A DNA stretch of 55,785 nt, filler included, from Ionaspis alba (taxonomy: Eukaryota), in the NCBI GenBank assembly GCA_964255285.1. It is 4 parts of 4 records of this genome, joined end to end, with 100 filler letters (N's around TTAATTAATTAA, not from the genome) between each part and the next. Parts side by side here need not be neighbours in the genome. Positions count along the whole stretch, not along the records: positions 1 to 13,910 come from CAXUUL010000443.1; 3 more parts are not named here. One strand, written 5' to 3'. Both the position numbers and the translations under genes were made by a program. Numbering within the stretch: position 1 is the stretch's first letter; every line of letters begins with the position of its first letter. The notes below the pieces were generated by a model. The model was given only the letters and a program-made list of their open reading frames with translations. It was not told the DNA's origin and searched no databases. This document shows, piece by piece, positions 1 to 53,107 of this stretch.

Positions 1-1080
1 ATTTAGAAAATCTACATCTTGCACCTCATCGCTGGTTGTACAGTTTTCTCAGTACTGTAGTTCGCTTTGGGACGGGGTGAGGTGGCACAGCCTATCCGAG
101 CGCTGGACGTTGCAAGCTAGCGAGTAGCATAATGGGATTTTTAGAGTTGATTGGTCCCTAGTCTGAGATATGTGCTGCTGTACTCTACATGGTGGCAGCG
201 ATGCCATCCCGCCGCTGCTACTCCACGTCGAATGCAGGGTTCTACACGGCCTGACCCGGGTCGCAAAATACTGTACCCTTCGGCATTATGATCAAGCGCC
301 CAGTACGCATCCGACACCCGCAATTGACCGCCAAGTCATTTAGGTCCGAGCGCTAGCGATACTACCACTGCAGCTCTTGCATACAATTTCACTTGAGCTG
401 CTGGGCCAGGGATCTGGGAAATCCTAAAAGTGTCTGCCTCGTGCTCATCACTGCCAACGATTGGGTTTCACATCCCTTCTTGGTCCGATGGATCGTCTTA
501 CCCGCCCTTGCTGGCCGGACTTCCACTTGGCCTAAAAGACTTCCAGCGTCTGGTACTTTGTACCCCGTATGTTCCCCACGCATGCGGCATCATATTATCC
601 TTCTGTTGGACTACTTTATTTTGGGTCGTGGATCTTGCATCACTCCTTCCTACCTTCTGTCAATCCTTCCTAGTCACGAAGATCACTGCAGTAGATGTTG
701 CTGGTTTTCGTGACTGGCCCGCTTCGGCCATTTGCCTGATCTGTTCGTGCTCAGCTCTCCCTACCTCTACTATCGGCGATAGATATCTGCCATGTTGACA
801 AGACTGACTCCAGGCCACCAAAGCCCATGTTATTGCCTTCTGCGTCCGGGCTTGCTTGCCTTCTCCACTGAGGAAAGACGGAGGTTCCGAGCCATGTATA
901 AAGGATGGCCCCCTTATTCTGTTCTTTTACTCATGCTCCTTCTCTGATATTACTTCTTATAATAGACTAAGTCTATCACTGCTATATTTCTGCTGCTTGT
1001 GACAACCTCAACACTGTATTTTAGCTCTTCTTATACACCCGTGACCCTTTTCTCCCTTTGCCCTTTCTTTTGCCAGAAGC

Positions 1081-1710
1081 ATGTCCACCCCCCACACAAG
1101 AGTCCCCTCAGCACACGGGAAGCCATCCACAGAGCATTCTTCCCAGCCGGGAATGGTAGAGAGGAGACTTTCACAGGCTGATAAAGGCCAGTCGACAAGA
1201 TATGCTGACCCAATTCAAGCTGGGTGAATGACTTCTACCATGACCTGATGCCCTATCCTTGACGCTGATCATATCAGGTCCAACTACAGCATCCCGACTT
1301 CTCTTCAGGCCATGCCACGCGGCTATACCAGCTCCGCTTCCCACCACAGTCATGACACCGAGCCCCACTCCCAAGCATACGAAGTGGCTTTTCAACATGC
1401 TGTCGCCGTATCTACCCCTTTCAGCGAGTCCTTGACGAGCAGCAACCTGGCCGAGTATACCCAAGCCACCTCTCAGTCTGTCTCAGGGCCTGGCATCGTT
1501 GGTGATCCTGATCATGAGCGCCTCGAGGCTCTCAAAGCCACTCTGATGCAGCTTAGTGTTGAGCTTGGTGTCGACCTTCCCGAGCATGTCGCCATAGAGA
1601 TGGCCAAGGACTACAACGGCATTACACCACTGCGAAGGTTCTTGGCTGAGAAAGGATACTGGTATCCTGGTCATACTACTTCATCTAATTCCACGGGACA
1701 AGTTTCTTGA
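1081..1710 (+). CDS. Orphan hypothetical protein, 2 exons (1081-1223, 1278-1710), ~191 aa
   Basis: ATG 1081. Intron 1224-1277 (GTGAAT...GCTGAT...CAG) joins exon 1 in frame (GG+G=Gly) to ORF 1312..1710. TATAAA at 897-902. No family recognised. Confidence 0.5.
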
Positions 1711-1921
1711 AGGATTGAAGGGGCGTCGGCCGAGGAGACTTTCGTGTTGCCTGAACTGCATGTTGTTTACAATTTATGTCTGACACTAATACTTACGATA
1801 GTCGAACATTATTTATGCTCACGATATACACAAGCGATGTTGTTCTTGATGTTCTTGTAATGTAAAGTAGCTCTTGAGTAACATACGTTCGTTGTAACGA
1901 AAAGGCTCGGCGAACTTTAAC

Positions 1922-2062
1922 AATGGTACACATTGCCAAAAGAGTCACCAAATGGTAGACATTGCCAAGAGTCACCATGAATGGAACAAATTGCCAAGAG
2001 TCACCATGAATGGAACAAATTGCCAAGAGTCACCAAATGGAACAAATTGCCAAGAGTCTCCA
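1922..2062. repeat. Minisatellite, 5 tandem copies of a 27-29 bp unit (AATGGAACAAATTGCCAAGAGTCACCA[TG])
   Basis: Copies at 1922, 1951, 1980, 2009 and 2036, abutting with no spacers. Confidence 0.95.
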
Positions 2063-2134
2063 TCTGCCACCAAATTGTCATGGTCACATGACTTATCCTA
2101 GAAATCTACGTTCGATCCCGCATTATTCAAAGCA

Positions 2135-3044
2135 TCACGTTCCTGTCATCCCAACGAAAATCGCCAAGTCAGCTGCATAAGCGGCTGTAATAGTCATTAC
2201 CTCTTGCTCCTTTGTCTTCGAAAACAATGCCACGAATATCGCAAAAAGGCAGGTACTTGTCGATACAGTAGTGAGAGTAATAACTTGCGATTTATGTAGA
2301 ACCATTAGGTGCATTGGTTCTATCACCGCGGCACCAAATAGTGCCAAGGCGATACGTTTGGTCGATTGCCACAGTCTTGCCTTCCAATTCACTCGAAATA
2401 CCTCCGGGTTCGCATAGTCGTCGGGTTCGAAGAGGTACTTTGCCACGGTAGCATTAGAAGCCGCGAATTATCGTAGCTTTATGCATTCATCATCTTGCTC
2501 TAGCAACAGCTGGTAGGTGGGGTCGCTCTTGTTCAATACATCTAGAAACTCGGTAGGTCTTCGCGAGCGCATCTTTCCCAAGTCCTGCACCGCACGCGCT
2601 AGATGCTGTCAGGTTTCCTCGAGATGCTAGATCGGATAACGGTCTTTCCAAGTCCTGCACCGCACGCGCTAGATGTTGTCAGGTTTCCTCGAGATGCTAG
2701 ACCGGATAACGGTCCTTACAGTGGCGTTGCAGCAGCTGGTTCAGACTTTCCATTTACACTCGCTCAAGCGCTGGATCGGTGATACGGTCATCAAAGCTCT
2801 CCGCTTCTCGTGCTAGCCTGTACTCGAGGTAGGAGATATTCAGACAAGCAAGGCGAGGAAAGCTCAGAACGGTTTTGCGATCCGTCATGTCGCAAAGCTC
2901 CTCTTTCGTTAGGGCCTGGATGACTCGGACGAAGTGCTCATCGTAGTTCTTTTGATATTCGCTCTGGGAAACGAGAGGCTGCTTTAGATGTGTAGGGTCG
3001 TTAGAGCTGATACTGAAGCCCTTCTCAAGATCTGTTGCAGCCAT
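2135..3044 (-). pseudogene. DUF6594-like membrane protein pseudogene (3 C-terminal TM helices)
   Basis: ATG 3044 (MAATDLEKG); motif LSFPRLACLNISYLEYRL; intron donor at 2719; C-terminus RIALALFGAAVIEPM...TITAAYAADLAIFVG typical of DUF6594. Exons 3044-2720 and 2598-2135 total 263 codons, interrupted by in-frame TAA at 2756-2754 and 2470-2468. Confidence 0.7.
2572..2714. repeat. 70-bp direct tandem duplication spanning most of the intron, the branch site, the 3' splice site and the exon start of the DUF6594-like gene
   Basis: TCTTTCC(C)AAGTCCTGCACCGCACGCGCTAGATG(C/T)TGTCAGGTTTCCTCGAGATGCTAGA(T/C)CGGATAACGGTC occurs twice with period 70. Confidence 0.95.
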
Positions 3045-7858: not shown

Positions 7859-10800
7859 TCATTTCCCTCCATCCTCCTTCCCTTCTAATTTCTTCACAAA
7901 CTCTGTCGCCCTTGCCTTCACTCCCTCCACACTCTTCGCATCCCCCTCTCTCTCCTCGAACTCCAACCACCTTTTGAAGAAGAATTTCGCCTTCTTCGCT
8001 TTCAACTTTCCACCCGTCACTCTTCTAAAAAGCCTTCTCACTTGCTCCTTATCCCCAGCCTTGATCTCCAGATCCAGTAGCACATTCCATAGATCTAGTC
8101 GTTTAGGGAACGTACTCAGCAATCCCTCGAAGATAGTCCGACCACGCTCTGCATCGCCGTTCGGGGAGCGAAACTCTAAGTACGCGAATTTGGACGTCAG
8201 ATCGAGGTGAGTGTGTTTAGGCAGGGATTGCAGAGCTCGGGGAAGGAGGTCGCGGGCGCGCTGAGGGGCAGCGAGGGTGTCGAAGAGGAAGGTTGCGTAG
8301 TTGAGCCAGATCTTTGGGTCTTGGGAGAATTTCTTGGTCATGGTTTGTAGAAGAGTGTCTGCTTTCTAAGAGGACGTCAGTTTACCGAATGACAGACAAG
8401 GAGTTCCCGGTAGAGACTACTCACCTCGTTCTTCCCAGATTGAATGTAGATACTCGTGAGACGGCTGTGTATCTCTTCCGGATCGTTAAACTCGCAAGCA
8501 CGCTTGAAAACTTCCTCGAGGGTTTCGTCGCTGCCGTAGGTATTCTCGAGGTTCAGGAATGCTACCCAGACGTTCAAACGCTCGCTGTCAGTGTCTCTAC
8601 CTTGGACAATTGTTCTGATGGCTCTTTCGGCGACTTCTCGCGCTTTTGTGACTTCGCTTAGCTGTAGCTGGAAGGCCATGTAGCTGAGCCAGAGATAGGA
8701 GGAGTTGGGTTCACCCATTAGTAGCCGCTCGAAGTCGGCGACTGACTGCGGGCCATTGGCGTCGAGATCTCCCGTTCTGTCGACCTTGATTTCAGCTTTC
8801 CTGCGTTTTTTCTTCTTCGGCTGAACGTTCTCTGCATCTGTGTCTGACTGTACGTCCTTACTGCCTCCATTCGCCAGACCCCCGGTCCAGTCGAAACCGC
8901 CAGTACTGAGACCTTTGCCATTCGATGGCAACTTTACACCTCCATGGGTGCTCGACTCGTCGCCACTTTTAGAATCATCCTTGTCCCCCATGTTGAGATC
9001 GCTGTCTATATCTTGTACATTCTCGAGATTGACATCCGGCGCTTCCTCCTCGTCCTTATCAGATCCTTCATTGCTGTTACCCCCAAGCTGCACACCCTCC
9101 ATGCCATCGGTATCCTCGTCATCACTGTCTGCGACGTCTTGCTCAACATCAAAGTACGAGGCCTTCAATCCCAGAGATATTCGCCGTTTGTCCAAGTCGA
9201 CTTTGAGAACTTTTGCCTTCACAATGTCTCCTTCGTCGTACAATTTTCGGACGTCGGCAACCCTCTCCTCCGCCATCTCACTGCGATGACAGAGCCCACT
9301 GACGTTGGCGGAGTCGTCAACCACAATAAAGACCCCGAAATCTTCAACTTTGCGAACCTTGCCGGTAACAATCTGACCTACCCGCATGTCGGCATACGTC
9401 AAAGGAGCTTTGTAGTTCTTGTCGAGCACAGACTTCTTAAGGCTCATCTGCACATGGTGGATCAAAGGATCCACGGCTAGAATCTTCCCTTGCACTAGCT
9501 GGTCTATCTCGAAATGCGATTTCCAGTCTTTCAGGAACAAATCGGAAAGATCGGAGACTCGAACAAAGGCCGTAACATTGCTGGCTAACGTTACGAAGAG
9601 ACCGTTGTCAGCGACATGCTTAATAAATCCGCGCACAACGTCGTTGACCTTGAGTTGTGATACAGAAGTGATTTCTCGATCCTCAACCCGCAGGGACGAG
9701 CTTAATATCCTTGACGGGCGGGTTGAGAGAATGATTTTCTTATTGGGTATGTCTAGGTCGACTACGCAGACCCTCACCGTCTGGTTCTTTTCATAGACTG
9801 TTGGATTCGCCTGGGAGTAGTCGTCGGCCAGATCAATGAGATGTACTGGTGCCGATAGGTTTTCATTCAACTGAACCATAATAAGTCGCTCGGTAACCTT
9901 TGTGATACGCCCTGGTAATACCATACCCTTGGAAAGGTCTTTCAATGTCAACGCTGCAGAGGAGCTGCCAGATCTGCCGGACAGGTCTAACCGGTTGTTC
10001 GTCACGTCCACGTTGAGTACTCGAGCTCTAATAGCGGAGCCGACAGGAAAGTTCTTTGCAAGGTCGGCGAGAAGAGAAACATCATCTGAGACATCCAAGG
10101 CTCTGATCCGTCCTCGGACGTTTGGAGATATATTGACCCAGATACAGTCATCGGTTATATTGTTTACAAACGACAACCAACTGGAACCAACTTTGACTTT
10201 ATCTAGTGTAAGCACGTCTAGGTCATCCTTGGTCAGATTCGACGGTTTTGCTGAAAGTTCAAAGACAGGAGCTTTGCCACTGTGAGTAATGGGAAGGAAG
10301 CGATGGTTCCTAGAATCGTGTACGCCAAGTATACGGACTGGTAGAATCTGTTTCGGGCTGAAAGTCTTCAGAGGGTGCTTGCGATCTTTGATGTCCTCCC
10401 AAGTGTCGAATACCTCAGACACGTCGATTCGGCCTTGAACATCATCGGCAAGTTGCACGTTGAGCTGGGTTTCCTTGACAGAGATGATCTTCGCCTTTGT
10501 TGTCTTGCCCAGAGTAAAATCGTCGATGGAAGTCGCAGCTTCATCAGCAGGATTCGATAGACTTCGGTTAAAAGGAATGTCGTCCAACTTCTTGGCACTC
10601 TCGGTATGCCGGGACGGTATGGGCTTTTGGGTAAGGAGAAAGCGTTGCTGACCATGATCCACGGAGAGGACCTTGGCAGTTATCGACTGGTTTCTTCGCA
10701 TGCCAAAGTCGGGTAGTCGAACAGCATCATCTGGGAGGTGATTTTTCAGCAGTAAGGCCGTCACATCTCCAGCAAAATTGACAAATACCCCACTCAAGGT

Positions 10801-13312
10801 GATGTTCTTGACAAAGCCAACTACCTCAGCGCCGACAATGACATCTTCGAATGAAGTAAGCAGGCTACCAGACTTTGATGCCTTGATCAAACTTGGTTTG
10901 CTCGTCAACCTGATGTGCCGTTTCTCTTCGTTCTTACTAAGGAGTAAGAGCCCTTCAAGATTTTGGCCTACCCTGATCTTCTTGGCTGCCCCAATAGATT
11001 TCTGTACAGAGCCATCTGTCAAATGTTCAAAGGGAAGGTATGCTCTTAGCCCAGAATCTTTCAATTCAACCACAATCTCATCGTTGGTCTTCTCTGAAAC
11101 TGTACCTGACACCACGGCTCCAGGAGTCAGCTCGGCAAGAGCTTTCTGCTGAGCAGGGCCGAAAGCAGAACGATCTCTGCAAGAAACAGTCATCCGCTCG
11201 TCCTCTGCATCAATAGACAAAATGTGCACATTGACCACCTGACCAACACGGAAATGCTGTTGAGGATCTTGGATGTAAGTCTCACTCATCTGGGAGACCG
11301 GAAGAAATCCCCTGACAGAGCCAAAGAACTGAACTATAGCTCCTGATGGTAAAATCTTGATAAGAGTTCCGGGGGACTCCATACCTACAGCTAGCCTATC
11401 AAAAGAGTCCCACACAGTAGCCTCGCTATTGACAAGGGTTTTCTTCAATGTCAGCCGCAGTTGGCGCTTCTCAAGATCTACAGAGACCACTCGAGCGGTA
11501 ACCGCGAGGCCTTCCTTGAATTTCTTCTCAGGATGCTGAAGATGGACGTCCGCCAAATGCATCTCAGGAACGAGTCCGGATATGCTCTCTGTGATATTCA
11601 ATATCAGGCCGCCCACACCAGTAGCGTTGACTATCAGCTTTTCGACAGTACCTTTGACAAGATCACCAACTTTGACATCCTCAAGTCGTAGGAATGGCAG
11701 TTCGATGGTGCTCCTTTCCAGCGAGACCAAGAACAGCCCGTCCATGGGATTGAAGCCGAATACCCGACCACGGTGGACGGATCCCACCCTATATGCGCCT
11801 GAAGATTCGGAGAGTACTTCGACCTTGCTATCGGATATTCTCGATATATGAACGAAGCCACGTATCCCCTTGACACCGAGATCGACGAAAAGCCCGAGAC
11901 CAGGCTCGACTTTGACAACACGAATCTCATCAACAACTGTGGAGATGGGGAGCACATCTGTAGGCACAGTATTCTCTTTGCTATCCTTTGGTGATAAGGG
12001 CGAAAGCGATATCACATGATCTAAGAAGGAGACTCCTAGCTTCTTCTCATCAGCGTGTGGAAAAGTACAGACAATTCGAGCTTTGGTCTTGCATCCGACA
12101 GGGTACTTCTTCTCGAGTGGCTTGCTACTCGCCGCGACTCCAGAGTGCACGATGTCTGCTGTCACATCAAGTAGACCCATGACCTTTCCAGCCAGTCCAG
12201 AAGCATTCACTTCAGAAACTAGAAGTTCCACTGCAGTCCCGGGTAGAAAAGAATCAATTGTGGGTGCATCAGTAAGAAAATTGCTCTTCTTGATGTGACC
12301 AATTCGTTGAGTATCTGCGGATAACTTGACAGTCTTGCCATTGGAGCTGACACCGATAACCATACAGAGGTAGACTGCGCCCGTCTGAATCGTTCCAAGG
12401 TCCTTCAGATGACCAATTTCTTTAGACGACATAAAACCCCGTGTACCTGTTTCCTCGAGCCCGAGATCCATGATGGCTCCATGATCCTCCACGCTGATGA
12501 CCGCAGCTTGGACAGTGCTGTTGATGACTAATTCATTTCCGCTTAGACCTTTGTTGGCCTGTCTGGGATTGATAGAAAGCTCAATATGCTTCTTTGTTCC
12601 TCCGCTCGAGCCTACTGGCCGCGTCGTTGAGGTTACGTATGCGCGAAGATATTGTCCAATTGAAAAGAGAGACTCCAAATCCAGCTCCTCAGACGATTCT
12701 GCTCCCTTTTCACTTCCTTCTGATTGCTCTTCTGCTACCAACGCTCTCGCCTTCTCAGTGACCTGGTCTGATATAGAAGTCAGAGGTATGTAGCCCGTAA
12801 GATTGTTGGGTAAGGACAAGGTAATATCGTAGCGATTTATTTGAGAGACTTGGCCAAGCACCATAGATCCGGGGACCAAGCGCTACTTATGTGAGCACTG
12901 TACAGTGAAATGGGCGCCAATTTAGCATAGATACCTTATAGCTTAGGCCCTCGATGCGTAGTCCACGCTCCTCGATCGACTTTTTCAATTTCGACTTCCT
13001 CCTCGGAACGACGGCTTTCCTCTGCACTGGCCGTGAAGCAGTGACTGGGCCTTGCACCTCGCCGTCGTCTCCGTCCTGCTCCCCATCCGAATCAAATCTC
13101 GCTGTTTTTTGCCCCGTACTTTGTTCGAATAGAACATCCTGCTTAGCTTGGATCTGGATCTGTTTCTGTTCCAGAGGTGTTAAGATGCTCGCCCCACCAC
13201 GAGGGAACGCAGGTTCTTCTTCTCGTAGGACGGATGGCAACGGCTTCTGCTTCTTGACTGGTCTTTCCGCGCGAAACCCCGCTTTTTCTGACTTTCTTTT
13301 CACGGAAACCAT
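7859..13312 (-). CDS. RRP5: rRNA biogenesis protein Rrp5 (multiple S1 domains plus C-terminal HAT/TPR repeats)
   Basis: Exons 13312-12935, 12882-8425 and 8365-7859. Motifs FPRGGASILTPLE, repeated S1 motifs, [50 protein letters not shown]. Confidence 0.96.
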
Positions 13313-13602
13313 GCTTGAGATACCGTGGCGGTGGACACTAAACTGCTTCTGTGTGAGGTTGAAAATGTGGTTGATATCGAATCCGAAACCGGCCCGTTGA
13401 TGGTGAGACCCGGCTACTCGTGAGCGGAGGTAGTACTCTCCATAGAGGCTGTCCCTGCACTATCCATGAGTGAAGTTGGGATTGTTAGATGTTGCTGTTT
13501 TTGAAACAGTTAATTGGTCAATTCCAGTATAATTTTCCTTCAAATCTGATTTTCATACCTGGGTTAATATTTATCCTAGCGCTGCATCCCGTGGTGCCGT
13601 GC

Positions 13603-13788
13603 CACGCGGGTGCCAAAATAAATGGTACTCCAAAAAGTGGAGTTCCCATAACTACCCAGCCGGGGGAACGTTTACGACGGGCGGGCTCCCCGATTCATCC
13701 ACCTAGAATCTCCTTCTTCTAGGGGATTTAAGACGGCGAGCCAGTTAAATCTCTCGTTTGGTGTACCATTTATTTTGGCAACCGGGTG
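13603..13788. mobile_element. Non-autonomous DNA transposon (MITE), 186 bp, 32-bp TIRs, 5-bp TSD; Transib-like ends
   Basis: Left TIR 13603-13634 CACGCGGGTGCCAAAATAAATGGTACTCCAAA. Right TIR 13757-13788 reverse-complements to CACCCGGTTGCCAAAATAAATGGTACACCAAA (29/32 identical). CGTGC flanks both ends directly (13598-13602 and 13789-13793). Confidence 0.65.
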
Positions 13789-13910
13789 CGTGCTTCCCTT
13801 GCGGGCTACAAATGAGATCGCTTAACAACCAGCGCTTCCACCTAAAGTTGGGCATCTATAGGGGTGTTAGGGGACTACATCGCTAATCTACCTTCGGGGT
13901 GCGTGGCTTG

Positions 13911-14010
13911 NNNNNNNNNNNNNNNNNNNNNNNNNNNNNNNNNNNNNNNNNNNNTTAATTAATTAANNNNNNNNNNNNNNNNNNNNNNNNNNNNNNNNNN
14001 NNNNNNNNNN
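13911..14010. other. Assembly gap with artificial linker N44-TTAATTAATTAA-N44
   Basis: Identical 100-nt construct also at 27895-27994 and 41856-41955; the 12-mer gives stops in all six frames. Confidence 0.95.
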
Positions 14011-14152: not shown

Positions 14153-17100
14153 TCATTCATCATCACTCACCCTCCCACTCCCACTCCCATTAGTATACAC
14201 GCCATCCCCACCTCCTGCTCCCGCCGCACTCCCGCCATTCGCATGGAACGTCAACTTCAACTTCTGCCCATTCGCGCCCGCCCCACTGCCCGCCGTCGTC
14301 GGAAGCGGCGTACTGACGCCCGACGGCCCAGCGGTAGACGGCCCATCGGCAGGCGTGCTGTCGTCGAAGTCTTGGAATTCGGGCTTGTTGGCTGTTTCGG
14401 AGCGGAGTTTGGCGACGCAGGCGGCCTGTGAGTGGTTATGTCAGTAAATGCCTTGTATGCATGCATGTGGGGCCAAGGCTGGAGGGGCGGAGGAAGGGAA
14501 AGGGAAACATACCTCAATATCATTCGCATCCTGAAACAGCATACTCCCATCCTCATTATATGTTCTCGCATTGTTACACAGCAACCTGATATCGTCCCTA
14601 AACTCCCTCAAGCTCTGATATTCATTCCGGTTGATCTTCTTCTGCACGTTGTCCATAGCAATAGGATTCGTGATCACAATATAGTAATCCGGATACTGGG
14701 ACTTCGGCACCAGTTTGATAAATGGATCGATGATCCCCCTCGTTGGCGGGCTGCCGTCTTCATCATCCGACGACTCGCCCGGGATTTCGGCTTCCAAGTC
14801 CATAAGGTGCTGGTAGACGTTGTTAAGGATCTTTTGCAGCTTGTTTCGCTCTGAAATCGTGAGCGTATCCACAGCTTTCGAAGGACGAGCACCGCGTTTG
14901 TTCCGTTTCGCGGCGGGGATTTCTTCGATCTCTTCATCGGCTTTGCGCTTGGGACCAGTGGATTTGCGATTCCGCTTTTTGGGCTGGGGTTCTTCGGAAC
15001 TCTGACGAGATGGTTCGGGGGAACTATCGATGCCCATGGCGCCTTTGGCTCGCTTCTCCTTGTTGGTGTTTCGCTTTTCGATGCGTGCGTTCTTTCGAGC
15101 GATGGCTGCTTCAAGTGTGTCCTCGTCGTCGTCCACGGCCATGAGCCATTGCTCCTCGGTGAGGCCGTCGTCGTATTTGACGCGAGTTCGCTCTCGTGCT
15201 CCACGTCCGGCGATCTCCTCGATCTCCTCGGTGACGGGATTGTCTTCCTGGAGATAGATATCGGGGAGTTCGCTCTCGCCCATCAGTCGAGGGAGTTTGC
15301 GACCAGGGCCATAGTCGGGATCCTTTGCTCGCTCAGCGTCCAGCTTTTGGAACATCACAAGCTCGTCTTCAGACCGAGCCATAATAGCGTTCAGGTCGTC
15401 ATCATCCATTTCTTCCTGTTCTGCAAGCTGCTCCGCTGCCTCTGCAGTTTCGAGCAATGTTCGGAGTAGGGCTTCTCGCTCTTCGTTGGAAGACTTGTTG
15501 TCGAACTTTCCAGCCTGGATGACTTTCCCGTCCATATCGAGCTTAAACTTTGCTCGCTCCAAGATTTTCTCTTCTACAGAGTTCGAGCTTATCAAACGCA
15601 AAATACGGACCTCGTTCTTCTGCCCGATACGATGAGCACGATCTTGAGCTTGCAAGTCCTGGTGCGGATTCCAGTCGGAATCGTAGATGATGACCGTATC
15701 TGCAGTCTGCAAGTTGAGACCCAGACCACCAGCGCGAGTGGACAAGAGGAAACAGAAATAGGGTGAATCAGGAGCATTGAACAGCCGCAGCAAGTCCGAT
15801 CTGTCGTCTGATTTAGTTGATCCATCGAGACGCAGGTAGGTCATGCCGCGCAGTCGTAAAAAGTCCTCCATGATGTTCATGATCTGTGTCATCTGGAAGA
15901 ACATCAAAACTCGATGGCCGGAAGCATGGAACTTGGGCAGGACTCGATCAAGCAATTCAAATTTGCCAGCCGTTCGCCAGAGCAAGTCATTAGTGCCTTT
16001 ATCGGGATTCATCTGCTCCTCCACTTGCTCGAAGACGAAAGGATGATTACACAACTTTCGCAACTGCATAAGCATATTGCTCAAACCTCGCATTCCCGTC
16101 TTGCCACCCTTTCCATCACTAACGGACATTCTGTTGTAAGTGACCAGTTGTTTGTAGAGTTTCGCCTGTAGAGCAGAGAATCTGCACTTGATGACTCGTT
16201 CCTGCTTGTCGGGCAGATCTTTCTCGACATCCTTCTTGAGACGACGGAGCAAGAAAGGCCGGAGAACCTTATGCAACCGACGAATGACAAGCAGTTGTTC
16301 TTCTTCCGTAAGTTCCATCTTGTCTGCGCTACCGGTATTGGCAAATGGCGTATTGAACCATTCGTCGAAAGATTTCACTGATTTGAAAATGGTTGGAAGA
16401 ACGAAATTGAGCAACGCCCACAACTCCGGCAAGTTGTTCTGCAATGGAGTACCAGTAAGAATAAGTCGATAGCGAGAGTGATAGTAGGACGTCAACGTCT
16501 GGCTGAGCTTGGATCCGGCATTCTTCATACGATGTCCCTCGTCGACGATCATATGGATCCACTTGATTTTACTCAGAACAGGTCTATCCTTGATGATGTA
16601 TTCAAATGTTGTGAGAAGGACTTGGAAGTTACCATAACGAATCTGCTGTTGCTGCATTTTCCTCGTGTTAGGTGGTCCTTTGTAGACAACGCGTGCGACA
16701 GAAGGTGCCCATTTCTCGAATTCGAGATTCCAGTTCGTGAGTGTACTCAGCGGTACGATGACAAGAAATGGGCCATTCTGCTTCTTCTTCTCGATAAGAT
16801 AGGTAATCAAACTTATCGTCTGGATCGTCTTGCCCAAACCCATCTCGTCGGCAAGGATACCATTGAGATTGTTGTTATACAACGAGATCATCCATTGCAA
16901 GCCTTTGAGTTGGTATTCCTTCAAAGTTCCTCCGACTAGCATGTTCGGCTGAGCTTTGACTTCTTCCTTGATCCGATGAGCCACTTGGTAGTAGTCGACC
17001 TTAGGGCCACCTTCTTCATCATCCTCGCTCTCGCTGATGTCCTCTTCAGGCAACTCATCATCTCCATAACGTTCCGCGGCACTTCGTTGTTGCTGCTTCA

Positions 17101-18722
17101 CAGAAGCGGCGAGTTGACTCAAGAATCCATCTGTTTGCTTGAGAAGGTGCGAGATACGAGAGTCTTTGGCTTGGCCAAGTAGTTTCATGTAGGTCTCTTC
17201 ATCGTTCGCCTTCAAAGCTTGTAGACGTTGCTTGGCAGTTCTCTCGACGCGTTTCTGTTCCTCCTTCTCGATATGCTGATGATGCTGTTGCATCATACGC
17301 CCAAGTTTCTGAACCCTTGCGCGCTGAGTTTCAGCATTTCTCTTGATCTCAAAACTGTGTTGTATGATGCCTTGGAGACGGTCTATCTGCTTCTTCTTCT
17401 CCTTTGTTTCCCTGGCATCCCTTTGCTCCTTCTCCAGCTTTTCGGTGATTCGGGCTTCACGCAGAGACTGTCTCTTCATGCGGCGGTAGCTAGACCGATT
17501 GGCAGTCTGGGCAAGATTGTCGTAATGAATCATGTCTCTGCTGACTTGCTGTCGAAGGGCTCGCTGTTTTGGAAGAAGATTGAGCATCTTCAATTCGATC
17601 AGGGCCTTCAGCTTGATCGAGTCGTCCGCTACCGGTACGTCACTCTTCTTAGTATCCCATTGCGCTATGTTAGCGCTCGTCTCGCTCAACTCAACCTTCC
17701 TCGTCAAAATCCGGTTGTAGATGATCTTCTCGCGCTCCTCGCGGACACGATCAACGTCGACCCCAGCACCCATGATACTCGGTACTATAAACCGCTTGCG
17801 TCGTACGTTGTGGTCAGCATATGTTATTGCAGTCTGGAGTGTCTCATATGGTGAAACGACAGACTCATACGTATGAGGAAGTTGTCCCGAAGCAGTCGCG
17901 GTTCGTCGATTCCGAGGCTGTGGAGCAGATCCTGACGCAGAAGAACTGGAGGCGGCTATTTGAGGAGCATCAGACTTTATGGTGTTTGTGACTGCTTCTA
18001 CTAGCTGGCCAGCTGTTGGCGGTCGTTTAGTCTGTTGAGATGCAAAGAGTTGTTGTTGCACGTGTGGAGGAATAGTAAGGTTCTTCGATAACAGCTTGAA
18101 AGCTAGAATCTGATTTCGAAGTAGTGCCATTTGTTCTGGGGTGAAGGTGCCATGAGGCCCGCCTTGTGGCTTTTGCGCTTGAGCCATCGGTGCGCCGGTG
18201 GTTGGAGTATCAGATGAAGCGCCTGACGCGGTGGTAGTCGGTTGACCTGAGGACAGACTGGACGTCGAGGTTCCTAGATAGTAGCATTTAGAATCCGTGT
18301 ACCTCGAAATCATGTTACAGAATGCTTCCTACCATTGACGCCATTCGCAGTGGACTGTGCATTGGCGGCAGCTTGCTGCTGCATGGCTTGACGAGATCGA
18401 GCCATCATTTCCTGTTGTTGCTGTGCCTTTTGTTTCCTATAGTTTGCTTGTTGACTTATCGCAGACAAGAGGTTGAAGGCCTTGATGTATTCGGGGTCAT
18501 CTTGCCGGACGCCATTATCCTTCATCATCTGGTATTTCTGAGATATTGGTTAGCCCATCGGGTTTGGTCGAGCATGAGAAGACCATATGACTCAAGTAGC
18601 TTCATTATGGATGTGTATCATTGACCTACCTTGTAGACTTCTTGCACATCGGCCTGGGTAAGGTTGCTGGGAATGGCAGTCCCAGTGTGGGCCATAGTGG
18701 GTGCGTTCTGCACAGACGCCAT
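14153..18722 (-). CDS. STH1: SWI/SNF-RSC chromatin-remodelling ATPase (Sth1/Snf21/Snf2 family; QLQ, HSA, SNF2 ATPase, bromodomain)
   Basis: Exons 18722-18630, 18537-18333, 18273-14513 and 14425-14153. Motifs LNGILADEMGLGKT, DEGH, QAQDRAHRIGQ and bromodomain YPDYY...NARTYN. Confidence 0.93.
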
Positions 18723-21016: not shown

Positions 21017-22015
21017 TGCGATATAAATTGCCTGGGCACGTTGCGTATTTCAAAAGTGATCTTTCAATGGGTCGTGTGGATGACCTCCAAAGTTAGATTC
21101 TGTTGGGGTATTCTAGTGATTTCAATCGTGAGATGATGAAAAGTCAAGAGCGTGCATAAGTCACCAGAACACCAGCTGGAGTACCGAATGCGCTGTGAAG
21201 TCCAACGAATGACTGGTAGTAAGTGATGAGGTTCTCAATGAGAAGTGTCCTGAAAGGATAACAAAGAGAAAAACCAGAGATCTATTGTAGAGCAAGATTA
21301 TTGTCTTGGGGGAGCAACTTATGGGGTAATCGCGGCGCTATCTCATACGCGGAAAGTGCCTTGTTTGTACCCCCGCGATTGGAATTCTAGCAGGGATCGG
21401 GGGTGACGCGCAGGGGGTGAATTGCTTGGGTGAGGCGGTTGACGGGACCTTTCAGGAGACCTCTCGAGCGTTCTAATTCAGGAACTTGAAACAACCTTCA
21501 GTTTACACGTTCTTCTCATCCGCGTCGTGATCCATCTGGTAGGATTGAGGAGTCAAAGTTGCTGGCTACTGCAGCCTTTTGTCTATTTAATAATATGCCA
21601 GCGTATGCTTCGTTGGGCAACAGGCCAGATGAAACAGCCTTTGTCTCTATCTATCTGACACGTCTAACGTCAAGCGCCCGTCGAATCATCACTCAAACCA
21701 ACTCGGGATAATGGATGGAAACCCTCTTCAGGTTGGTATGCCAGGAACACAGTACATGAATTGCTTAGACCCCTGGAGCAGACAACTCGTAATAGGGAAG
21801 ACGAGATCATGGAGTCATGATGCTTCAGGCAGATACATCAACTGCATCTGAACACCTGGTTAAGGTCAAGACACCACAAGTACATAATTGAGTTCGTTTT
21901 GCGCACATATGTGGCATTATCTAGAATGAAGACGAAGTCTGTAGCTATCATCGCTATGCAGAGGCTCATTCCATATTCGATGCCAATCCCCCCACGACAC
22001 AAATCAGAAGTGCGC

Positions 22016-27894: not shown

Positions 27895-27994
27895 NNNNNN
27901 NNNNNNNNNNNNNNNNNNNNNNNNNNNNNNNNNNNNNNTTAATTAATTAANNNNNNNNNNNNNNNNNNNNNNNNNNNNNNNNNNNNNNNNNNNN
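27895..27994. other. Assembly gap with TTAATTAATTAA linker
   Basis: N44 + 12-mer + N44. Confidence 0.95.
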
Positions 27995-30751: not shown

Positions 30752-30851
30752 NNNNNNNNNNNNNNNNNNNNNNNNNNNNNNNNNNNNNNNNNNNNNNNNN
30801 NNNNNNNNNNNNNNNNNNNNNNNNNNNNNNNNNNNNNNNNNNNNNNNNNNN
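30752..30851. other. 100-N gap flanked by an exact 55-bp duplicate (30697-30751 = 30852-30906)
   Basis: Identical 55-mers on both sides indicate overlapping contig ends. Confidence 0.9.
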
Positions 30852-31512: not shown

Positions 31513-31865
31513 CGTGGCAGTTGTGTTTTGCGGTTGGTTGATGAGGATATCGTCTTCTCAAAACAAGCTAGTTTCGCCAAAGCGAAGCGTAGAGTTGTAA
31601 GGCTAGCCTTGTGCCACCAATTGACGAATCAGAATGACCCTTGTTGCAAGCCATTGCAAGCAGACCAAATGGACAGTGATCATCTGGTTGCACTAACGAA
31701 TGGTAAATTGGGAGACTCAAGCTCCACCGTCCAGCCAATCAACATTGTTGAGCTTGGGACATTGTTTTGGGACTTGCCGCATATGTACACATAGAACCCT
31801 CAAGAGATGCCTGGGGTTGAAGTACGACTACTCTGTATGATACAGTGGAATATTTTCTAAACAAA

Positions 31866-33425
31866 TCAAACGCTGAGCCCAATATCTTCCGCAAAAGGAA
31901 GAACGTAGAGATCTCCAACAGCAGACACCGTCGCCTTCGACTGTAGTATCTCTTTCGCAGCCTAGAAACAGAACTCTTAACTAACATCAAAGAACTTATA
32001 GGACAGGGTTTACTCACCTTCTTGACTTTATCCTCGGTCACTGAACCAATACTCTTTCCGACCTCGTCAATTTGGTGGGGCTTTCCACCTTGTATCAAAC
32101 CTGCACCGGTCAACTCAAGCCCCGCGGCAACATTCTGACCGGACTCTAGAGCGTTAAATTTTGCAGACGCAACGGCCTTCGTGAAATCCTCCTTACTGAT
32201 CTCCCCCGCCGCAACGCTCTTGATGACCTTCACAATCTGTGAGGCAGCTTCCCTAATTTGCATTGCATTGCCATCTATTGAGATGTAAAGTAGACCAGCA
32301 TCCGAGTAGGTGGCATGGGTGGTTGCGATTTGAATTCCAGCGTGCGCAGAGTTGATTTTGGAGAGTAGAGAGAACCCGGGGGACCACTTAATGCTTGACT
32401 GACCACCTAGGAGCGCTGCTAGTACGGCGACTTCAGGCTTGTACGACCCTCCAGTAAATGAGCTTGAACCAGGGAAGGCGATGATCATCGAGTTGCCGGA
32501 GTCGTGCGCGATACGCTCCTCGCCTCCATAGTATTTCGAGGCGGACGTGTCCATTTTTGGAACATTGCTTGGAGGTGAGGTAGGACAGTCCGGAAAAAAT
32601 TCACCAACCCATCTCGACAGCTCAGAATGATTGGCGCCATTAGCGATGACAGCTATATTCCCCTTGGCGTAGGCGGCTTTGCTGTAGGCTTCCAAGTACC
32701 GTGCACCAAGGTATTTGGTGAGTGGCGATGAAGAGGTTGGGTGAAGGGGTGCACCAAGACCTCGGTGAAAGGCTATTCCATGAGCGGAATTGATAGCTAG
32801 CTGGTCCGGTTTTCCTAGTAGTGTCTTCTGCGAGAGCTTGATGATGGGGAGAACCTCTTCCTCGAACTCATGCCCTGCATAGAGTCAGTTCTGCATTTGC
32901 ATTAGCAGATCGCCAATCATACGCGTGTATTTTGTGTTTGAAACGACCTCCGCCAGTAGCTCTGCATAGTATGGCAGATCCTCCCGTAGAAACTTTGCGC
33001 CAATTATCAAATTCTCCCGTGAGTGGTATGCCATAAGCTCAGCGCCAAGGAGTTCTGATTCTCGATTTATTCTTAAAGCAGATCGCCTGTGGGTTGACTA
33101 CCACGTTCGTTCAATGTCAGCGTGTGTGGTCAACGGTATTGGAATGTGAGACTAGACAACTAACCTTGAAAGCAAACTTCTCCAGTCCGTCCGCAAAGCC
33201 TGGCAGTACCTGATATCGCGTTCCGGCCTTCGCAACTACCGCCAAGGTGGTCGTGGGGCCCGCGAGATCTCTGCTTGCGAATTTGACACCACCCGCTTCA
33301 CCGGCTTCATAGGAAAAGCTCCCTGATGCGGCTGCTGCAAGACCTCTACGATTGGTTGGCTGGACGGCGACCGGCCGTCGCAAGGCAAGCTGCGCATTGC
33401 GGCCAAGGCGAGCCCGAGAGATCAT
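31866..33425 (-). CDS. QCR2: Ubiquinol-cytochrome c reductase core protein 2 (M16 peptidase-like)
   Basis: Mitochondrial presequence MISRARLGRNAQLALRR; AKAGTRYQ, LEKFAFK, RESELLGA, FLREDLPYYAELL, YSDAGL, C-terminal VGDLYVLPFAEDIGLSV*; 3 introns. Confidence 0.93.
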
Positions 33426-36470: not shown

Positions 36471-36570
36471 NNNNNNNNNNNNNNNNNNNNNNNNNNNNNN
36501 NNNNNNNNNNNNNNNNNNNNNNNNNNNNNNNNNNNNNNNNNNNNNNNNNNNNNNNNNNNNNNNNNNNNNN
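36471..36570. other. 100-N gap flanked by an exact 55-bp duplicate (36416-36470 = 36571-36625)
   Basis: Identical 55-mers on both sides. Confidence 0.9.
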
Positions 36571-41855: not shown

Positions 41856-41955
41856 NNNNNNNNNNNNNNNNNNNNNNNNNNNNNNNNNNNNNNNNNNNNT
41901 TAATTAATTAANNNNNNNNNNNNNNNNNNNNNNNNNNNNNNNNNNNNNNNNNNNN
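41856..41955. other. Assembly gap with TTAATTAATTAA linker
   Basis: N44 + 12-mer + N44. Confidence 0.95.
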
Positions 41956-53007: not shown

Positions 53008-53107
53008 NNNNNNNNNNNNNNNNNNNNNNNNNNNNNNNNNNNNNNNNNNNNNNNNNNNNNNNNNNNNNNNNNNNNNNNNNNNNNNNNNNNNNNNNNNNNN
53101 NNNNNNN
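53008..53107. other. 100-N assembly gap
   Basis: Run of N; truncates the TMEM234-like gene. Confidence 0.95.

Follow-up and report, generated by a model that had tools for sequence, protein, structure and literature searches.

A probable MITE insertion with CAC...GTG ends and a 5-bp GC-rich target-site duplication upstream of RRP5 in Ionaspis alba

Transib and its relatives as the closest described systems

Transib is the transposon group ancestral to RAG1 and to the V(D)J signal sequences, and its record in fungi is thin and contested. The superfamily has been defined by 5-bp target-site duplications, GC-rich targets and ends that begin with CAC, and its end consensus consists of the heptamer CACAATG, a spacer of ~23 bp and the nonamer AAAAAAATC (PMC1131882). 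Kapitonov and Jurka (2005) treated Transib as the only superfamily with 5-bp duplications (PMC1131882). For Hztransib, the duplications are invariably 5 bp long, and its ends carry heptamer-like but hardly nonamer-like sequences (PMC4840297). A recent preprint describes relatives of Transib with 3-bp and TA duplications, and concludes that an assignment based on the transposase may be supported, but should not be overridden, by the length of the duplication and the sequence of the ends (preprint 10.64898/2026.08.26.747230). Transib belongs to the CMCT clade, together with EnSpm/CACTA, Mirage, Chapaev, Plavaka, ESTA and Lanisha; these lineages have in common 5'-CA..TG-3' ends and duplications of 2-5 bp, and fungal EnSpm families with CAC..GTG ends have been described (PMC12730594).

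As to fungi, the 2005 paper places a Transib transposase in soybean rust only (PMC1131882), and a 2017 survey employing the Pfam RAG1 family detected none and gives Transib as the one superfamily that is missing from fungi (PMC5751038). A paper from 2022 presented 20 potential fungal Transib-like proteins (PMC9435367). The entries in its supplement include Massospora, Austropuccinia and one ascomycete, Erysiphe pulchra, whose entry lies on a contig of 3,970 bp; according to its authors, neither the Austropuccinia nor the Erysiphe entry has identifiable inverted ends (PMC9435367). The transposons of lichen-forming fungi, MITEs included, are barely described. Our literature searches found no report of Transib in lichens and, by title or abstract, none, among the papers listed, of a fungal MITE that leaves a duplication of 5 bp.

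Anatomy and setting of the 186-bp element

The window analysed here, i.e. the whole stretch of 55.8 kb from I. alba, was assembled from separate contigs joined by linkers, and gene neighbourhoods across the joints are thus no evidence of linkage. The artificial joints (N44-TTAATTAATTAA-N44) occupy positions 13911-14010, 27895-27994 and 41856-41955, and N100 gaps are found at 30752-30851, 36471-36570 and 53008-53107. The element and RRP5 lie on one contig of 13,910 bp, which ends at position 13910, 117 bp beyond the element. RRP5 is encoded on the minus strand by a first-exon ORF (12887-13312, with its ATG at 13312) and a main ORF of 1,500 codons (8377-12879), which carries the Pfam domains S1, S1_RRP5 and OB_RRP5 (OB_RRP5_4th) and whose relatives are named rRNA biogenesis protein rrp5. 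The main ORF is shorter than these named relatives, which measure ~1,780 aa, and the C-terminal HAT/TPR repeats must therefore be located in a further exon downstream. A putative additional ORF lies downstream of the main ORF at 7862-8365 on the minus strand. The next contig begins with an ORF for a Snf2/Sth1-type chromatin remodeller (14441-18313, minus strand; QLQ, HSA, SNF2, Helicase_C, SnAC and bromodomain). Among the 25 ORFs of the window scanned in Pfam we found housekeeping families only and no transposase.

Among named proteins, RRP36 (75% identity) and RRP5 (65-68%) have their closest relatives in Xylographa, Lambiella and Trapelia, all Lecanoromycetes. Judged from these proteins, the host is a lichen-forming Lecanoromycete near Xylographa and Trapelia, in line with its initial annotation as an ascomycete.

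The element itself spans 186 bp (13603-13788) and is delimited by two terminal inverted repeats of 32 nt, a left arm on the plus strand that starts with CAC (13603-13634) and a right arm on the minus strand that ends with GTG (13757-13788). As determined with a repeat finder, the arms lie 122 nt apart and are complementary at 29 of 32 positions (91%); the mismatches fall on positions 4, 8 and 27, and all three are transversions. In a pattern search, the outer 23 nt of the right arm showed two mismatches. An A-rich block covers positions 13-20 of the left arm, and AAAA occupies positions 13-16 in both arms. The internal 122 bp (13635-13756) can form some stems and have no transposase coding capacity as judged by six-frame translation and folding, the longest stop-free stretch within the element being 45 codons. 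Both the size and the inverted ends are thus of the MITE type.

Flush with the left and the right arm, the sequence CGTGC is found at 13598-13602 and again at 13789-13793. The match between the inverted repeats ends exactly at CAC and GTG, since complementarity breaks off at the bases just outside, and the boundaries of the element are therefore not arbitrary. From the ATG of RRP5, the element is separated by 290 bases and lies upstream of the gene. These features agree with the initial annotation, which had reported 32-bp inverted ends with 29 matches, CAC at their start, AAAA at positions 13-16, a CGTGC repeat that exactly bounds the element and an insertion ~290 bp upstream of the RRP5 start codon. 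Other boundaries were also considered: inspection by eye gave no matching flanks for a 3-bp or an 8-bp duplication, nor for a solo LTR with TG..CA ends.

Mimps of Fusarium are among the classical fungal MITEs, which derive from Tc1/mariner or pogo transposons and leave TA duplications. The element resembles them in its size class, its inverted ends and its position near a gene, but its duplication comprises 5 bp and is not TA.

Next, we asked how often such an arrangement would be expected by chance. The probability of at least 29 matches in 32 positions is 7.5e-15, so that ~1.3e-6 such pairs within 3 kb are expected across the window. Of 54,389 window positions, 53 (0.097%) have a flush direct repeat of 5 bp at the spacing of the element. 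When the whole window was scanned for inverted repeats (seed of 10, arms of at least 16 nt, at least 85% identity, span of 40-3000), three were found, among which the 186-bp element alone is bounded by a flush direct repeat of any kind. Chance thus does not account for the 186-bp inverted repeat together with its flush repeat. As for the two others, a weaker inverted repeat at 21240-21465 has arms of 18 nt (16/18) and a span of 226 bp, and a 16-nt inverted repeat (15/16) at 31727-33367 encloses a Peptidase_M16_C ORF within a span of 1,641 bp; neither has flanking direct repeats, and the latter probably arose by chance.

Folded as single-stranded DNA, the element region reached -49.2 kcal/mol compared to -25.7 ± 3.2 kcal/mol for 200 shuffled sequences (z = -7.3). 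A fold of this strength upstream of a housekeeping gene, at a distance of 290 bases, would also suit a conserved hairpin of the RRP5 upstream region that is not mobile, be it a palindrome with a regulatory role or a structured transcript; the CGTGC repeat next to it would then be a coincidence. The fold as such follows from the anatomy, because a long inverted repeat must fold in this way. Moreover, the hairpin would leave to chance a 5-bp repeat that sits exactly at the limit of the inverted repeat, which ~0.1% of positions would provide. None of the Rfam families attained its curated score; the better of two sub-threshold matches, RefA5, obtained 18.9 bits where 91 are required. A tRNA search of the window returned none.

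A second, diverged copy of the element

Further copies of the element bear directly on this alternative. Within the 55.8-kb window, a pattern search allowing up to 3 mismatches retrieved the two arms only, and neither blastn-short nor a permissive blastn revealed a second copy. Two prokaryote searches have no bearing on fungi: the 22-nt core of the inverted end had 0 matches in a prokaryote DNA collection, and a prokaryote profile scan built on the frame of the window and on the protein described below (P0123) gave 32 pattern matches, 0 of them confirmed. Since protein sets include ORFs that gene finders have called on contigs of lichen fungi, we searched with a translated frame. To this end, the stop-free frame of 45 aa at 13652-13786 on the plus strand was compared with 1.84 billion representative proteins.

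This search returned a single match at E ≤ 0.001, a predicted protein of 55 aa from ENA (P0123; E = 5.9e-5), which matched the window in a tblastn comparison with E = 1.3e-11. P0123 aligns with the translated element in a gapless manner; the alignment begins at an ATG within the left arm (13622) and leaves only the final 2 nt at the right end uncovered, and the reading frame of P0123 stops at the end of the element. Identity extends to 28 of the 54 codons that can be compared. Conservation differs between the segments, with 5/6 identical codons in the left arm, 1/15 in codons 7-21, 10/19 in codons 22-40 and 12/15 in the right-arm region. Codons 7-21 match the neighbouring frame instead (VRIIVQLGKHLRR vs VPITTQPGERLRR, 7/13), a frame switch that reads as the signature of compensating indels. 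Furthermore, the reverse complement of the left arm accounts for 9 of the last 10 residues of P0123 as well.

The gapless alignment across the element thus indicates a second, diverged copy of equal length. As read from the translated protein, through which alone this copy is known, the family has at least one further, diverged member. The initial annotation had named a single copy, together with the lack of an empty-site allele and a stem conserved in relatives, as a reason to give up the mobile element, and P0123 speaks against a single-copy state. A profile of P0123 and the window frame recovered only P0123 among proteins of 24-97 aa. The motif ATGGTAC is present in both arms, and P0123 appears as an ORF that starts inside the arm of another copy and reads through. 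The presence of ATGGTAC in both arms thus enables gene finders to call short ORFs through the element, and arm-internal ORFs of this kind offer a reusable route to MITE copies in protein sets.

The copy also speaks to the hairpin. In this one related sequence, conservation is higher in the arms than in the middle, as a hairpin would show, but the middle has acquired frame-shifting indels and is of low identity. In addition, P0123 stems from a contig of 60,251 bp, and none of the best 120 of 1,627 RRP5 relatives (E ≤ 1e-50) lies on a contig of this size. Judging from contig sizes alone, the P0123 copy is therefore probably located at a locus other than RRP5. Taken together, we consider a non-mobile hairpin very improbable.

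The 186-bp element is very likely a genuine MITE insertion upstream of RRP5, i.e. a non-autonomous DNA transposon of the cut-and-paste type, a judgement that concerns the insertion and not its superfamily. Its proposed non-autonomous nature agrees with the inverted ends, the CAC...GTG termini, the 5-bp GC-rich duplication and the further diverged copy. From this anatomy and from the established behaviour of comparable elements, a transposase encoded elsewhere in the genome would bind the inverted ends, whose best-conserved block (positions ~9 to 26) includes the A-rich stretch. The enzyme would cut exactly at the CAC/GTG boundaries, the element would be joined to a target whose two strands are cut 5 bases apart, and gap repair would then give rise to the two copies of CGTGC. 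The duplication was read at one insertion, and its length of 5 bp thus represents n = 1.

Superfamily of the element

With the boundaries of the element at hand, we aimed to place it among the known superfamilies. Its 5'-CA..TG-3' ends with C at position 3 point to the CACTA/Mirage/Chapaev/Transib clade. Other superfamilies with 5-bp duplications were considered as a source of the MITE, namely hAT5-like and Ginger2/TDD-like elements. Duplications of 5 bp are known from hAT5 families (PMC12730594) and duplications of 4 or 5 bp from Ginger2 (PMC10045372), and hAT and rve-type (Ginger) elements have been reported to be ubiquitous in fungi (PMC5751038). The ends argue against both. According to the legend of Figure S7 in PMC1131882, the third base of a hAT end is invariably G, whereas the element has C there, and hAT5 is nested in an animal hAT lineage (PMC12730594). 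Ginger2 elements have TGTNR ends and AT-rich targets, in contrast to the CAC...GTG ends and the GC-rich target observed here, and the 5-bp cases given for Ginger2 are TDD-4 and TDD-5 of Dictyostelium (PMC2836005). A derivation from either group thus appears very unlikely. As the ends exclude hAT and Ginger2, the CMCT clade remains, and we regard an origin within this clade, of whatever kind, as somewhat favoured; another or an unclassified superfamily is a distinctly less likely source.

Within the clade, the CAC-initial ends expected of CACTA/EnSpm elements are present in both arms. The 3-bp duplication of that superfamily did not fit, because the duplication has 5 bp here and the three flanking bases differ between the two sides (TGC vs CGT). 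The same holds in general for CACTA/EnSpm, Mirage, Chapaev, Plavaka and ESTA, which share the 5'-CA..TG-3' ends with the element but, in the descriptions of these lineages, have duplications of 2-4 bp (3 bp for EnSpm, TA for ESTA) instead of 5 bp. Among the CMCT lineages, a GC-rich duplication of 5 bp fits the geometry of Transib and RAG.

This raises the possibility that the MITE was derived from, and moved by, a RAG1-like DDE transposase of the Transib superfamily in a Lecanoromycete. In favour of it, the duplication CGTGC has 5 bp, four of its five bases are G or C, and both ends start with the invariant CAC. The element resembles in these respects the non-autonomous Transib-N1_AG and Transib-N2_AG of Anopheles and Hopper/Kodama of Drosophila, which are likewise short and have inverted ends, CAC and 5-bp GC-rich duplications (PMC1131882; preprint 10.64898/2026.08.26.747230). 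The initial annotation had taken 5-bp duplications as characteristic of Transib and ProtoRAG, which agrees with the 2005 definition (PMC1131882) but leaves aside hAT5, Ginger2/TDD and the Transib relatives with 3-bp or TA duplications. Indeed, the descriptions of these groups show duplication length to be labile both inside Transib and across the CMCT clade, and the sequence of the ends varies within Transib as well.

A closer inspection of the ends weakens the resemblance. The heptamers of the two arms (CACGCGG and CACCCGG) each match CACAATG at 4 of 7 positions, and three of the four matching bases are the CAC common to the whole CMCT clade. When both arms were scored against the Transib consensus, neither had a nonamer at a spacing of 12 or 23: a nonamer starting at position 20 scored 4/9 and 3/9 in the two arms, and with starts at positions 29-31 the left arm reached 4 to 6 of 9 and the right arm 4/9. 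At position 29, the left arm alone has CAAAAAGTG (6/9), compared to 4/9 in the right arm. The best nonamer-like sequence is an A-rich block that begins at position 14 in both arms (7/9). In both heptamer and nonamer, the element thus departs from the non-autonomous Transib elements named above, and its fit to the Transib end consensus is weak. The absent nonamer weakens a membership in Transib but does not exclude it, because Hztransib also has no clear nonamer. Moreover, a palindromic target type (CASTG/CAWTG/CARTG) has been named for those elements, and CGTGC is not of that type (PMC1131882; preprint 10.64898/2026.08.26.747230).

The host bears on the question as well. Potential Transib-like proteins have been reported from 20 fungal entries (PMC9435367), but the superfamily is rare or absent in fungi according to PMC1131882 and PMC5751038, and the literature examined contains no ascomycete Transib with inverted ends, the host here being an ascomycete. 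Furthermore, the duplication is a single one, and the 25 ORFs of the window did not include a transposase. From the proposal of a Transib-like derivative, the MITE, its CAC ends and its 5-bp GC-rich duplication thus hold, and the 4/7 heptamers and the lack of a spaced nonamer stand against it. We therefore regard Transib membership as doubtful at present, a lead and not a result.

In broader terms, we can only tentatively propose that a Transib lineage, or an undescribed CMCT lineage with a Transib-like 5-bp geometry, is or was recently active in Lecanoromycetes and left MITEs close to genes. As evidence for Transib in an ascomycete, the element is a good lead for a genome-wide search and no demonstration. 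If the partner enzyme turned out to be an ordinary CACTA-like or other transposase, the element would simply be a further family of fungal MITEs, located close to a housekeeping gene. Should the proposal hold true, Ascomycota would gain their first family of this kind for which inverted ends and target duplications are defined. Clean-ended MITEs with duplications of 5 bp would provide a direct handle for the autonomous partner in genomes of lichen fungi, and this partner would settle whether Transib proper, or a new relative sharing its integration geometry, is present in Ascomycota.
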